Sequence record: NC_106721.1
Reading direction: 5' to 3' (one strand)
Length of the DNA stretch: 64,000 nucleotides
From: Escherichia phage EC148
Shown: positions 6,954 through 9,435 of the stretch, one piece after another
Layout: each line of letters begins with the position of its first letter
How positions within the stretch are numbered: the first letter of the stretch is position 1
Made by a program: the position numbers and the translations under genes
Notes under the pieces: generated by a model
Told to the model about the DNA's origin: nothing
The model's database searches: none
The model's input: only the letters and a program-made list of their open reading frames with translations

Positions 6954-7448
6954 ATGGCTGAGGAAAAATACGGCTTCTCGCTAGGGGAAGTGAGCACGGC
7001 TAAACATGATATGATCATTTTAGTCGATTGTCATACTGGCTATTGCGGGGAAGGGAATACCGAGGAATACTTTGTTCCTGCTGGTACGGATCTGGACGCT
7101 TTCGCTCATGAAATGGCTATTGATAATGCTTCTCGTTTTGGTAGCGATGGCTATGAAGACGAAGAAACTGGCGAATGGTATGAAAATGAAAACGTATATG
7201 CTGGCCTTTATCATTATCAATTAAGTAAATCCGGCACATATGTAAACGGCGGCGATCCTATTAATTCCGTCATGAAATTAATTATTAAATATGGTGGCGT
7301 CGAAATAATTGATAATAAAGCGGTAATATACGCAAATCGATTAAAACAGCTTGTTTATATTCCTGATAATACCCGATGGGAGGAATACGCTGTTTTACAT
7401 GATGAATTAAAACGATGTTTCAATGTTGAATCCTTACAGGTAGTTTAA
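6954..7448 (+). CDS. hypothetical acidic protein
   Basis: 164 aa ORF with AGGAGG RBS. Confidence 0.5.
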   Translation: MAEEKYGFSLGEVSTAKHDMIILVDCHTGYCGEGNTEEYFVPAGTDLDAFAHEMAIDNASRFGSDGYEDEETGEWYENENVYAGLYHYQLSKSGTYVNGGDPINSVMKLIIKYGGVEIIDNKAVIYANRLKQLVYIPDNTRWEEYAVLHDELKRCFNVESLQVV

Positions 7449-7552
7449 TGTAAAGTTTTGTAAAGGTCGCCTTTTATGGTGGCCTTTTTTGTTATAATGC
7501 TTTTACACCAAAACGGTGGATTAAAAATTTCCCAAAAATTTGGAGGCTTAAA

Positions 7553-7783
7553 ATGGTTGCTTACTCTTCTGCTACTCATCTGTTCACCGCTCAAGGCTGG
7601 GTATCTAACCGCGCCATTATTCATGAAATGGTGCAGGAGTTCGGCATTGCTAAAACTTATAACACCATCCAAGAACTATACAACGCCGATAAAATCGATC
7701 AGCAAACGGCGGGCTTTTTGCTGGACACGCTGAAAGCGGAACACTGTACTAAAAAACAAGCTGCAAAAATTGTTTTAATGTAA
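7553..7783 (+). CDS. hypothetical protein
   Basis: 76 aa ORF with GGAGG RBS. Confidence 0.4.
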   Translation: MVAYSSATHLFTAQGWVSNRAIIHEMVQEFGIAKTYNTIQELYNADKIDQQTAGFLLDTLKAEHCTKKQAAKIVLM

Positions 7784-7830
7784 TTAGTAACGGGGGATAT
7801 TATATCCCCCACTGACTAGGAGAATAAAAA

Positions 7831-7980
7831 ATGGTTATTTTTCGAGCTATTCTGGCGGGTATCTTGGGCGCTATTTTATCGTTGTTTGCAATAGCTTTTG
7901 GCGTTCACGCCGTTATTATTGGCGCTGGCATTGCTGCGTTTTCTTATCTGCTGGGCTGCATGACTAGTAAAGGAGAATAA
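7831..7980 (+). CDS. small hydrophobic membrane peptide (49 aa)
   Basis: own translation: MVIFRAILAGILGAILSLFAIAFGVHAVIIGAGIAAFSYLLGCMTSKGE; RBS AGGAGAA upstream; below the 60 aa cutoff of the ORF track. Confidence 0.4.
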   Translation: MVIFRAILAGILGAILSLFAIAFGVHAVIIGAGIAAFSYLLGCMTSKGE

Positions 7981-7982
7981 AA

Positions 7983-8195
7983 ATGATCCGCAACGTTTCC
8001 CTTGCACGTTCGAAAGGCTTTAAGCTGGTGGATGTTAACACGTTCGAGCGGGAAGATTGTAAAATCGAATATGTAGCACGTAACAAAAATGCCTTTCGTG
8101 TTACCGAGAAAAAATTTGATAAGCGCGGCAACGTGATAGCTGAAACAGTTAAACACTTTGCCACCTTTTACGCTGCGTTTCGTGGGGTACTATGA
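7983..8195 (+). CDS. hypothetical protein
   Basis: 70 aa ORF, start 3 nt after previous stop. Confidence 0.4.
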   Translation: MIRNVSLARSKGFKLVDVNTFEREDCKIEYVARNKNAFRVTEKKFDKRGNVIAETVKHFATFYAAFRGVL

Positions 8196-8335
8196 AAAGC
8201 GTTATTGTTATTATCCTTGCAATGGCTGGCGGTTTTATCGCCACCTTATTTAAAAATGACCCCATTTCATTGGGGATCTTTATGCTTTTATCTGGCTATC
8301 TAATCGGGAGGCTAACAAATGATTCAGCAAATTAA
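8192..8335 (+). CDS. small hydrophobic membrane peptide (47 aa)
   Basis: own translation MKSVIVIILAMAGGFIATLFKND...; ATGA start/stop overlap with upstream gene. Confidence 0.4.
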   Translation: MKSVIVIILAMAGGFIATLFKNDPISLGIFMLLSGYLIGRLTNDSAN

Positions 8336-8441
8336 AACGGCTTTTCGTTTTTGGGGCGTCCTGCCTTCAATTGGTTTTATTCTGATAATTATTAGTCAGC
8401 TAATGATCATCGGCGGAACTATTTGGGAGCTATGCAAATGA
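8319..8441 (+). CDS. small hydrophobic membrane peptide (40 aa)
   Basis: own translation MIQQIKTAFRFWGVLPSIGFILIIISQLMIIGGTIWELCK; overlaps the previous peptide gene in another frame. Confidence 0.35.
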   Translation: MIQQIKTAFRFWGVLPSIGFILIIISQLMIIGGTIWELCK

Positions 8442-8782
8442 TAATTTATGAAGGCAATCGTTTTGTTGCTAATTGCCGCCCAGCATTATTAGCAAACTAT
8501 TTAAATCAGCTTTCCCCAGCTTATAAGGGCGTTATTAATATTTATGAGGGCAAGGCACATTATAAAATTAATGCGGTCGTTGCCCGTGAACTAGCGTTTC
8601 AATTTTTGACCTTTGCATCTTGTGACGTTCAGGTTATGGGTGAAGCATTAATTGCAGAAAATGAAGATGATTTTATTAATATTTTCCGCAAGGTATGTAC
8701 CGAGCGCCTGATAATGAAAGGCGCATATATTCAATCCACTGCGGATAGTATTGAAACAGCGTTTCGAAAGGTGGCGCAATGA
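8438..8782 (+). CDS. hypothetical protein
   Basis: ORF track 8423..8782; start moved to ATG at 8438 (ATGA overlap with upstream stop). Confidence 0.45.
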   Translation: MIIYEGNRFVANCRPALLANYLNQLSPAYKGVINIYEGKAHYKINAVVARELAFQFLTFASCDVQVMGEALIAENEDDFINIFRKVCTERLIMKGAYIQSTADSIETAFRKVAQ

Positions 8783-8883
8783 GATTATATATTTTCGTTG
8801 GTAATAGTAAGGCCGCTAATGATTCCGCTGGTGGCGATAACATTCGCCACTATTGGCAAAAATATATTTACTAGGGAGTTATT

Positions 8884-9078
8884 ATGAGTAATAAAATAGT
8901 TGTAACCAAGATCAGTACAATGGTTGATGTTTTTTACGTGCCAGATACGCCGGAGAATCGGCAAGCGGTCGAGCGTGGCGAATATGATAAAGTGATTTAT
9001 GATCACGATGGTTATTATCAGTATTTGGTGGATTCCTACGGGGAGGAGGAAAAAATCACGCATCGACTACCAGACTAA
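8884..9078 (+). CDS. hypothetical protein
   Basis: 64 aa ORF with GGGAG RBS. Confidence 0.4.
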   Translation: MSNKIVVTKISTMVDVFYVPDTPENRQAVERGEYDKVIYDHDGYYQYLVDSYGEEEKITHRLPD

Positions 9079-9119
9079 TAATCACGGGGCGCAACTATCA
9101 GGGAGTGCCCCCAATTTTC

Positions 9120-9140
9120 AAATGAGAATGATTCTCATTT
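9120..9140. repeat. palindrome AAATGAGAATGATTCTCATTT
   Basis: near-perfect 21 bp inverted repeat; second copy at 9616-9635. Confidence 0.6.
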
Positions 9141-9435
9141 AACCGCGCCCGCGATGGTTAGCCTGCTAATGATTAGGGTGTTACGTGTCGCCTTGTGTGA
9201 TCGTTAGCTCGCTAACTAATTTCTAAGCCTCCTCCAATTTTACCCGTGTTTTAGTATCCCCAACAAAATTAAACGCGTTAGAATGCGTTTGAGAGCGTTT
9301 TAGCTGTATATTAGAATTATTCACTGCATAGGAATACTGTATATTTATACAGTAGGATAAGCTGTTGATAAGTCTGTTGATAACGCCTCAAAATGGCTAG
9401 GATTTTGTCAAGTCAAATCGTGCTGTTGATAAGTC

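Follow-up and report, generated by a model that had tools for sequence, protein, structure and literature searches.

Predicted membrane mini-proteins encoded by a T5-like phage in its rightward pre-early operon

The pre-early locus and its genes

The window, the whole stretch of DNA analysed here (64,000 nucleotides of Escherichia phage EC148, NC_106721.1), belongs to a Tequintavirus and displays about 99.7% identity to SUT_E1520 and T5_ev212. Three small open reading frames, referred to as P1, P2 and P3, lie on the plus strand within the rightward pre-early (first-step-transfer) operon. This setting had been proposed in a preliminary description of the DNA and is borne out by homologs of the region, which are found inside the annotated left terminal repeat or first-step-transfer DNA of T5 and BF23, and likewise of Spc35. 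The unit is made of the following features, given 5′ to 3′.

7462-7487, plus strand: terminator-like hairpin with a T run (10-bp stem, then TTTTGTTATAA), 3′ of a gene encoding 164 aa
7553-7783, plus strand: T5.012 homolog, 76 aa, soluble, first gene of the unit (phrog_5145, E 1.8e-49; synteny with T5.012)
7792-7810, plus strand: GC-rich 8-bp hairpin GGGGGAUA/UAUCCCCC without a U tract, in the spacer 5′ of P1
7831-7980, plus strand: P1, predicted two-helix membrane hairpin, 49 aa (phrog_5607, E 1e-31, full length)
7983-8195, plus strand: T5.014 homolog, 70 aa, soluble, between P1 and P2 (phrog_4227, E 4e-50; GRAVY -0.35)
8192-8335, plus strand: P2, predicted two-helix membrane hairpin, 47 aa (phrog_19184, E 1.6e-30, residues 1-46)
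8319-8441, plus strand: P3, predicted single-pass membrane peptide, 40 aa (AlphaFold2 single helix, residues 2-39, pLDDT 83)
8438-8782, plus strand: T5.015 homolog, 114 aa, 3′ of a variable slot (phrog_4379, E 4e-64; synteny)
8779-8874, plus strand: conserved non-hydrophobic ORF, 31 aa, ATGA-coupled to the T5.015 homolog (phrog_22819, E 6e-26)
8884-9078, plus strand: T5.017 homolog, 64 aa, last gene of the unit (phrog_6973, E 2e-42)

The hairpin at 7462-7487 marks the start of the transcription unit holding the peptides. A TATAAT sequence found just 3′ of it (7493-7498) is a candidate promoter element; a terminator is annotated at the equivalent place in T5 and BF23, and BF23 also has a predicted pre-early promoter just downstream. 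Folding of the segment 7775-7835, which contains the GC-rich hairpin before P1, gave -15.8 kcal/mol (z -2.25). No Rfam family, and so no known RNA element, was detected in 7300-9400, where an uncatalogued antisense RNA may still be encoded. T5-like pre-early genes are mostly without an assigned function, and several early phenotypes are without an assigned gene. The T5.015 protein of T5 is an Ung-dependent nickase (Mahata et al. 2021, PMC8201957).

All three plus-strand ATG-to-stop frames called in the preliminary description (49, 47 and 40 aa) are present, and the strong hydrophobicity attributed to their products was confirmed by GRAVY values of 1.69 for P1, 1.03 for P2 and 1.17 for P3; the 109 ATG ORFs of 38-60 aa present over all six frames of the window average 0.13 (sd 0.60). 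The sequence also contains the ATGA stop/start overlaps reported for this region, at 8192, where the ATG of P2 overlaps the stop codon of the T5.014 homolog, and at 8438, where the stop codon of P3 overlaps the start of the T5.015 homolog, as well as an out-of-frame overlap of 17 nt between P2 and P3 (8319-8335). The arrangement differs from the one described in two respects. The genes had been placed back to back, but the T5.014 homolog (7983-8195), which encodes 70 aa and is non-hydrophobic, separates P1 from P2; P1 does not overlap this homolog, whose ATG begins at 7983, after the TAA stop codon of P1 (last base 7980). A single helix had been assigned to each peptide; this agrees with P3 and has to be revised for P1 and P2, which have two hydrophobic segments each.

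Anatomy and conservation of P1-P3

P1 is the short-loop ortholog of T5 gp013 and lies between the T5.012 and T5.014 homologs, which matches the synteny of T5.013. It has the same position and the same N- and C-terminal helices as T5 gp013, and matches the family profile. Its hydropathy profile contains two hydrophobic segments, and the annotation of T5.013 likewise gives two TM domains. Alignment against the long-loop forms of 59-61 aa indicated that length variants differ solely in the loop between both hydrophobic segments, which is GVHA in P1 and a sequence of about 16 residues (GIQDSYCGLVNTKPMV) in the T5 counterpart. Direct reading of the sequence revealed small-xxx-small faces on both helices. 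P1 relatives were assessed through profile and DNA evidence, with a pN/pS of about 0.1.

AlphaFold2 models P2 as a helix-turn-helix whose two helices span residues 2-19 and 24-46 (pLDDT 88.5). The conserved core is made of residues 1-41, with GGF..F-K-x-D-P forming the turn (K21, D23, P24) and GYLxGRL the end; TNDSAN, the final 6 residues, arises incidentally because the P2 frame runs on into the start of P3, and C-terminal tail variants were seen among P2 homologs. These homologs form 25 clusters, all from T5-like phages, with dN/dS values of 0.09-0.45, and a profile search run exhaustively against 1.84 billion representatives retrieved only 2 clusters at 50% identity. AKFV33 orf014, which shares 94% identity with P2, occupies the same position and has the same two-TM prediction, made for orf014 by independent TMHMM/SPLIT annotation; ORF14 is listed as completely novel in the AKFV33 paper. 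No function is described for the phrog_19184 family, and Foldseek comparison of the P2 model with viral and PDB libraries returned nothing below E 4.

P3 had no match in PHROG, Pfam, NCBIfam or PADLOC. A tblastn search of the phage collection retrieved identical copies only (E 5e-3), and the diverged copies came from a DNA search and manual analysis of the loci. A metagenome scan added only 5 P3 loci, and a second scan of viral contigs found none beyond contigs already counted. Across 10 distinct sequences the annotated frame was the sole frame open in all 10, and variable sites were distributed over the three codon positions as 15/11/27, a third-position bias; dN/dS was 0-0.22. W12, S26-Q27 and E37 are invariant. 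Several records leave P3 without annotation, making it a gene often missed or mislabelled by annotation pipelines.

Paralogy of P1 and P2 was rejected, with an hhalign probability of 6% and only a 12-residue C-terminal stretch (GYLIGRL/SYLLGCM) in common, and paralogy of P2 and P3 was rejected with an hhalign probability of 0.2%.

Near-identical genomes annotate all three frames as CDS, and each has a Shine-Dalgarno site or a coupled start: a GGAG sequence is located 8 nt 5′ of the P1 start, and GGGAGG is located 7 nt 5′ of the P3 start, within P2 codons. The frames are kept across relatives with low dN/dS. P1-P3 are all under purifying selection, with dN/dS at about 0.1-0.3 when the three are taken together. 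We considered it scarcely credible that these frames are open merely by chance, in T-rich DNA, without being genes. Short hydrophobic ORFs do arise easily, since 6-10 of the 109 background ORFs match P2 or P3 in hydrophobicity, and the missing annotation of P3 fits this idea; against it, the frames are maintained at 47-60% divergence and in differing gene orders, they have strong Shine-Dalgarno sites, and a phenotype has been demonstrated on expression for the P1 family. The comparative data effectively refute chance frames and establish P1-P3 as conserved genes with a predicted membrane topology.

In the Tequintavirus Bas33, RNA-seq gave about 540-590 TPM for bas33_0175, which is the P1 ortholog, and for the neighbouring bas33_0174 and bas33_0171. 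The P2 ortholog bas33_0173 (126 nt) was detected at about 1.6 TPM, versus about 500-600 for its neighbours, a low value that we read as a read-assignment artefact of a short gene. We infer that P1-P3 are translated in vivo and inserted into the membrane.

A variable slot flanked by the T5.014 and T5.015 homologs

A survey of 42 sequences (41 fetched loci and the window) indicated that the slot between T5.014 and T5.015 is either empty or contains P2, P3, P2-P3, an unrelated TM peptide of 35 aa, or P3-P2′, in which the two frames share a TTGA overlap. T5 itself has an empty slot, without P2 and P3. The P1 alleles, P2 and P3 occur in all combinations. Among phage records, T5.014 was found in 435, P2 in 158 and P3-like DNA in 50, which corresponds to about 36% of relatives for P2 and about 11% for P3. 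Across relatives, small TM peptides of at least eight unrelated families occupy this hot spot, using three or more slots within 1.5 kb. One locus (L027) carries a P3-deletion footprint. The P3 copy of NBSal005 is 100% identical to that of the window, versus 89-95% for the flanks, which we take as signs that P3 may have spread horizontally in recent times.

P2 and P3 behave as independent, mobile and accessory cassettes. The possibility that they form an obligate pair, of the toxin/antitoxin or holin/antiholin type, was rejected because each occurs without the other and both gene orders exist. Their distribution is confined to phages. Homolog searches retrieved proteins of T5-like phages only, and a host origin of P1-P3 was rejected, since 5,426 E. 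coli genomes and 72,556 plasmids contained no related DNA. No host-genus bias was observed, Salmonella phages making up 56% of P2 carriers, 64% of P3 carriers and 62% overall.

Stop/start coupling to the next gene is kept in every arrangement, and each cassette brings the Shine-Dalgarno site and start region for the gene that follows. This is what would be expected if the P2 and P3 frames were translated spacers or RNA elements tuning expression of the toxic nickase gene (the T5.015 homolog), the peptides themselves being functionless. A small hairpin inside P2 (8260-8275), followed by a U-rich run and with one pair supported by two compensatory changes, points in the same direction, but its z score is only -1.7 and slid controls were nearly as good. 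Low dN/dS and conserved residues show that the amino-acid sequence is selected, and T5 and many relatives manage without any spacer, T5.014 being coupled directly to T5.015. We consider such a purely regulatory function highly improbable.

The distribution also bears on whether P2, P3 or both could be counter-defence proteins. Their target would be a host immune sensor or effector embedded in the membrane, such as a transmembrane effector of an abortive infection system, which they would silence by binding. Their patchy, cassette-like occurrence in a hot spot of unrelated small TM families speaks for it, as do their earliest expression, their dispensability on a laboratory host and the signs of recent spread, a combination that would be typical of an arms race. 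Conversely, no similarity to catalogued defence-related proteins and no relevant literature were found, the presence of the genes is not linked to host genus, and we know of no precedent for counter-defence by peptides of this type. On balance, we regard this function as unlikely.

A broader proposal is that the rightward pre-early operon of T5-like phages serves as a dedicated shuffling site for membrane mini-protein cassettes, each of which would specifically inhibit, from within the membrane, a different host defence sensor or effector or the route by which a competitor phage's DNA enters; exchange would take place by recombination at the shared ribosome-binding-site/start junctions, and P3 would represent an uncatalogued inhibitor family. 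We give little credence to this proposal as a whole.

Membrane activity, possible roles and known systems

Effects of expression are reported for the T5 member of the P1 family. T5 gene 013 expressed from pBAD24 is toxic and leads to shrunken, DAPI-negative ghost cells in a lysis-like manner, and over-expressed gp013 was described as compromising membrane integrity (bioRxiv 10.64898/2026.04.02.716235). With pBAD33 as the vector and the native ribosome-binding site, T5.013 was not toxic (Mahata et al., PMC8201957), so the lysis reported in the preprint may be an over-expression effect common among small hydrophobic proteins. These toxicity data were obtained with the long-loop T5 protein, whereas P1 is the 49-aa short-loop allele. 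A T5 deletion of the hegG-017 block, 013 included, is viable on a laboratory host, and deletion of the whole right pre-early block has little extra effect on such a host (bioRxiv 10.64898/2026.04.02.716235). Since this deletion is nearly silent, any role is expected to be conditional. The interpretation offered in the preliminary description is supported in part: these are genuine, conserved plus-strand pre-early genes for small membrane proteins, and one of them belongs to a family toxic to E. coli, but the helix anatomy and the adjacency of the genes had to be revised.

The ghost cells produced by over-expressed gp013 and the small-xxx-small faces on both P1 helices raise the question of whether P1-P3 are generic membrane-damaging peptides. 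They would cause an early partial depolarisation or permeabilisation, to which P2 and P3 would add dose, and this might aid host shut-off or let the products of host-DNA breakdown leave the cell. The best match of the P1 profile in the PDB, the pore-forming type I toxin PepA1, fits with this but is non-significant (E 0.15). Entry of T5 DNA is reportedly independent of membrane energisation, and depolarisation could therefore be tolerated by the phage. Several observations weigh against generic damage: a core shut-off function should be conserved and should matter on laboratory hosts, where the right operon is dispensable; P2 and P3 are found in a minority of relatives and T5 has neither; T5.013 is non-toxic at lower expression; and the conserved polar S26 and Q27 in the middle of the P3 helix look more like a site of partner binding. 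We find generic damage as an explanation for all three peptides rather doubtful.

The reading that we favour, and consider slightly more probable than not on present evidence, is that P1-P3 are separate, real genes for accessory inner-membrane mini-proteins that confer a conditional benefit by inserting and acting in the bilayer. According to this model, the rightward pre-early operon would express the peptides during the first minutes of infection, their translation being coupled to that of neighbouring genes. They would enter the host inner membrane in the pause that follows first-step transfer and act within the bilayer, where P1 would oligomerise and loosen the membrane, and P2 and P3 would bind or perturb some membrane component. 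The orientation predicted is N-in/C-in for P1 and P2, and N-in/C-out for P3. The phage would benefit under certain conditions only, and not in an essential way.

The preliminary description had proposed inhibition of host membrane machinery or superinfection exclusion; neither this analysis nor the literature searched yielded support for such activities of P1-P3. The literature search retrieved no paper on P2 or P3, and comparisons by sequence and by fold gave no match to a known exclusion, holin, toxin or anti-defence family. Any biological role of P2 and P3 is one that we infer. For the peptides at large the most likely role would be a conditional one, in which they may exclude other phages, counter a host defence or perturb the membrane. 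Among these, blocking the DNA entry of competing or superinfecting phages is a possibility that we hold tentatively, a generic partial permeabilisation or depolarisation seems rather questionable, and neutralisation of a membrane-embedded host defence must be rated unlikely. As two of the three genes, all below 50 aa, are freely reassorting optional cassettes, they provide a short and concrete list of candidates for phage-phage exclusion, counter-defence and membrane perturbation. If specific targets exist, small phage peptides acting within the bacterial membrane would be of use as probes or as antibacterial leads.

T4 Imm and HK97 gp15 are small predicted inner-membrane superinfection-exclusion proteins that are early, non-essential and accessory. 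P1-P3 share all of these general properties (small size, predicted inner-membrane location, early timing, non-essential and accessory status) but are about half the size and have no similarity to them (Pfam, E ≤ 1). More generally, the search for a superinfection-exclusion family gave no Pfam match at E ≤ 1 beyond noise and no PHROG functional label. The known exclusion factor of T5 is the lipoprotein Llp, which is encoded elsewhere.

P1-P3 resemble pinholins and type I toxins (S21, TisB, PepA1) in their size, their 1-2 TM helices and their small-residue faces, and gp013 shares with these the membrane damage caused at high dose. They differ from pinholins by being located outside a lysis cassette and by not being late, and no match to a holin family was found in Pfam, PHROG or NCBIfam at E ≤ 1. 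In the relative AKFV33, holin and lysozyme are early-region genes. With regard to type I toxins, hydropathy and AlphaFold2 indicate small hydrophobic membrane peptides as in these systems; neither an antisense antitoxin (Rfam, 7300-9400) nor a chromosomal or plasmid locus (E. coli genomes and plasmids) was found.

The finding is fairly ordinary in that it adds to a known pattern and does not define a new one. Like the hyperplastic or moron regions of phage genomes, which contain many small membrane ORFs, the locus has a mosaic make-up: genes are present in some relatives and absent from others, and recombination falls at gene boundaries. Unlike them, its cassettes are accommodated inside a translationally coupled operon, each supplying the next ribosome-binding site.

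Three small hydrophobic genes in the pre-early operon

Over 7400-8900, the window shares 99.6-99.7% identity with Escherichia phages SUT_E1520, SUT_E420 and T5_ev212; many further Tequintavirus genomes match it at 90-94%. In T5, BF23 and Spc35, the homologous region lies within the left terminal repeat (the first-step-transfer DNA carrying the pre-early genes). P1, P2 and P3 are therefore part of a rightward pre-early operon, as the preliminary description had proposed, and the three ORFs were found exactly where it had placed them.

Genes of the operon segment and their coordinates
7831-7980, plus strand: P1, 49 aa; GGAG 8 nt upstream
7983-8195, plus strand: T5.014 homolog, soluble, 70 aa, GRAVY -0.35; phrog_4227, which carries the nickase product name
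8192-8335, plus strand: P2, 47 aa; ATG within an ATGA shared with the T5.014-homolog stop
8319-8441, plus strand: P3, 40 aa; GGGAGG 7 nt upstream, within P2 codons
8438-8782, plus strand: T5.015 homolog; nickase activity described for T5.015

The start context is plausible for each ORF. The last 17 nt of P2 also encode the beginning of P3, in another frame, and P3 in turn ends on an ATGA at 8438 that starts the following gene. A back-to-back arrangement of all three ORFs had been described; this holds for P2 and P3, while P1 is separated from P2 by the T5.014 homolog. With GRAVY values of 1.69 (P1), 1.03 (P2) and 1.17 (P3), the peptides lie at the hydrophobic end of the distribution for six-frame ORFs of their size in the window (mean 0.13, sd 0.60).

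All three ORFs are annotated CDS in near-identical genomes. The PHROG hits were phrog_5607 for P1 (E 1e-31) and phrog_19184 for P2 (E 1.6e-30); P3 has no PHROG family match. Across 41 fetched loci and the window, P1 displayed a pN/pS of ~0.1. For P2, pairwise dN/dS was 0.09-0.45, a copy of only ~50% protein identity being among those compared; P3 had a dN/dS of 0-0.22. Among 10 distinct P3 DNA sequences, variable sites at codon positions 1/2/3 numbered 15/11/27, and the annotated frame was the sole one of six free of stops in all of them. The reading frames, whose conservation had been put forward as the test of the proposal, are thus conserved in relatives. P1-P3 are selected, tightly coupled genes; that they are not genes can practically be dismissed, and a purely regulatory spacer role for P2 and P3 is very improbable. 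Direct evidence for transcription of the operon exists from the relative Bas33 (HildyBeyeler), where the P1 ortholog bas33_0175 and its neighbours reached ~540-590 TPM by RNA-seq. The 126-nt P2 ortholog bas33_0173 (1501-1626 of locus L041) stood at ~1.6 TPM in the published table, against ~325-590 TPM for the genes flanking it on either side; the low value is probably a read-assignment artefact, reads spanning two genes being unassigned to a gene shorter than the read.

Several annotations in this region deserve comment. P3 is present but unannotated in AKFV33 (7931-8053), SE11 and SE8; in ECOP18 and STG2 it is labelled 'iron ABC transporter permease', evidently an artefact of hydrophobicity. 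RefSeq NC_005859 and phrog_4227 name T5.014 (70 aa) 'endonuclease nicking abasic sites generated by host uracil glycosylase Ung', whereas the describing paper assigned this Ung-dependent nicking activity to T5.015 (114 aa; Mahata et al. 2021, PMC8201957). The nickase label appears to have shifted by one gene and spread to the annotations of many relatives. In NBSal005, a frameshift cuts the T5.014 homolog to 34 aa in both terminal-repeat copies (L039/L040 2001-2105); the gene is a pseudogene there unless the sequence is in error. A conserved, non-hydrophobic 31-aa ORF (8779-8874; phrog_22819) is ATGA-coupled to the T5.015 homolog; its T5 copy (L014 2556-2651) overlaps the 5' part of annotated T5.016 in another frame, and one of these two annotations may be wrong in T5. 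Upstream, the T5.011 homolog is followed, ahead of the terminator, by an acidic 164-aa ORF (6954-7448) that the window shares with BF23 (BF23_00011) and that T5 lacks. Ahead of P1, the spacer that follows the T5.012 homolog contains a GC-rich 8-bp hairpin without a U tract (7792-7810; GGGGGAUA/UAUCCCCC; folding energy z -2.25 versus shuffles), which could be a processing or stability element.

P2 and P3 as modular cassettes

P2 and P3 are modular and optional. T5 has neither; 1 nt separates its T5.014 stop from its T5.015 start. Across relatives, the junction between these two genes is a slot with variable content.

Content of the T5.014-T5.015 slot
Empty: 13 loci, T5 among them
P2 only: tails GRL*, GRLSNGYL* or GRLCK*
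P3 only: L028, L029 and metagenome loci L043, L047
P2 then P3: window, AKFV33, SE11, NBSal005
P3 then diverged P2: L025 (S124 type), P2 start a TTG overlapping the P3 stop
Unrelated hydrophobic 35-aa peptide: L021, L030

In the window, the six P2 residues past GRL (TNDSAN) are the P3 start read in the other frame; the functional core of P2 is therefore residues 1-41. The cassettes end in GGGAG-N7-9-ATG(A), the ribosome-binding site and start of the following gene, and these short shared junctions look like recombination points. In a Salmonella phage SP01-type locus (L027 2210-2341), the P2 tail is GRLCK* and the T5.015 homolog then begins with MQMIIYEG, a start seen elsewhere only where P3 precedes it. 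A P3 deletion, by recombination between two GGGAG...CAAATGAT junctions, appears to have left this footprint. The P3 DNA is 100% identical to the NBSal005, ECOP18 and MM-1 copies while flanking genes are at 89-95%, a sequence pattern indicating recent exchange. The phage collection held 435 records with T5.014 homologs, 158 with P2 and 50 with P3-like DNA; neither Salmonella nor Escherichia phages were favoured. Every combination of P1 allele type, P2 and P3 occurs, so no one depends on another. The P2 loop-coding region contains a short hairpin (CCCCA...UGGGG) with a U-rich run behind it (8260-8275); one pair changes from C-G to U-A in two relatives (L035, L025), and controls were not convincing.

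Relatives also carry unrelated small hydrophobic ORFs in two more slots, one preceding T5.014 and one following T5.015, so that the operon as a whole gathers membrane mini-protein genes. At least five additional ORFs of this kind were found across the three slots.

Additional small hydrophobic ORFs in relatives
L025 1905-2000: 31 aa
L021/L030 2213-2320: 35 aa
L005 2556-2714: 52 aa
L027 2684-2845: 53 aa
L028 2670-2807: 45 aa

The families are confined to T5-like phages. Among 5.8 billion proteins, word-indexed searches gave no matches beyond T5-like phage or unnamed metagenome proteins, and an exhaustive profile search with the P2 alignment (1.84 billion cluster representatives) returned two clusters, one of P2 and one of its diverged S124-type form. 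No related DNA was found in 5,426 complete E. coli genomes or 72,556 plasmids, and Pfam, NCBIfam, PADLOC, PDB sequence search and Foldseek gave nothing significant. Common ancestry of P1, P2 and P3 was unsupported by profile-profile comparison.

Predicted topology and the T5 gp013 family

P1-P3 are predicted to be bilayer-spanning helices. The AlphaFold2 model of P2 (26-sequence alignment; pLDDT 88.5) consists of helix 2-19, an F-K-N-D turn and helix 24-46, and that of P3 (pLDDT 83) of one helix, residues 2-39. Single-helix peptides had been anticipated throughout; this description suits P3, whereas P1 and P2 each have two hydrophobic segments. Two TM domains are annotated for AKFV33 orf014 (= P2), by TMHMM and SPLIT, and likewise in the T5.013 record.

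By sequence, P1 is an ortholog of T5 gp013. A 59-61-aa form, found in T5 and in roughly one in three of the relatives examined, has ~11 extra residues (IQDSYCGLVNTKPMV replacing VHAV) exactly between the two hydrophobic segments; the window has the 49-aa short-loop form. T5 gene 013 is among seven pre-early genes toxic from pBAD24, and its expression led to shrunken, flattened, DAPI-negative cells, consistent with lysis, a phenotype tied by the authors to its two predicted TM domains; T5 lacking hegG-017, 013 included, is viable (10.64898/2026.04.02.716235, 2026 preprint, Boulanger/Rossier laboratory). T5.013 with its own ribosome-binding site in pBAD33 showed no toxicity (Mahata et al. 2021, PMC8201957). 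Collectively, the T5 ortholog of P1 causes cell damage at high dose and is dispensable.

Small-residue faces on P1 helix 1 (A9/G13/S17 and G10/A14) and helix 2 (A27/G31/A35 and S38/G42) fit self-association and membrane loosening. P2 keeps a GG-[FY]-x-A-x-x-F-K-x-D-P turn and a G-Y-L-x-G-R-L end even in the 50%-identical copy, P3 keeps W12, S26, Q27 and E37 in copies down to 60% identity, and these patterns look more like partner recognition than bulk membrane damage.

Proposed role and relation to known systems

From the selected, coupled genes, the predicted helices, the modularity, the restriction to T5-like phages and the dispensability and high-dose damage of gp013, we infer that P1-P3 would enter the inner membrane in the pause that follows first-step transfer, and would act within it. 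Since these genes are optional, are freely reassorted among relatives and show no effect on a laboratory host, we favour a conditional role. Of the candidate roles, blocking the DNA entry of competing or superinfecting phages ranks first, and we advance it tentatively; generic partial permeabilisation follows closely but is rather unlikely, and counter-defence against a membrane-embedded immune component comes third and is unlikely. It is also doubtful that P1-P3 are specific in-membrane inhibitors of defence or competitor entry; if they were, the finding would gain interest.

The finding of three membrane mini-protein genes is real and, in the part that concerns P1, already known. The new part lies in P2, a member of the uncharacterised family phrog_19184, and especially in P3, a small phage-restricted family outside PHROGs; we found no literature on either beyond annotation, the AKFV33 paper terming ORF14 (= P2) completely novel. 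Cassettes within a translationally coupled operon are a neat example of phage mosaicism and introduce no new principle. With early exclusion proteins (T4 Imm, HK97 gp15), pinholins and type I toxins, P1-P3 share size and hydrophobicity but differ in the other features that could be compared; with the gp013 family, P1 shares every feature testable here.
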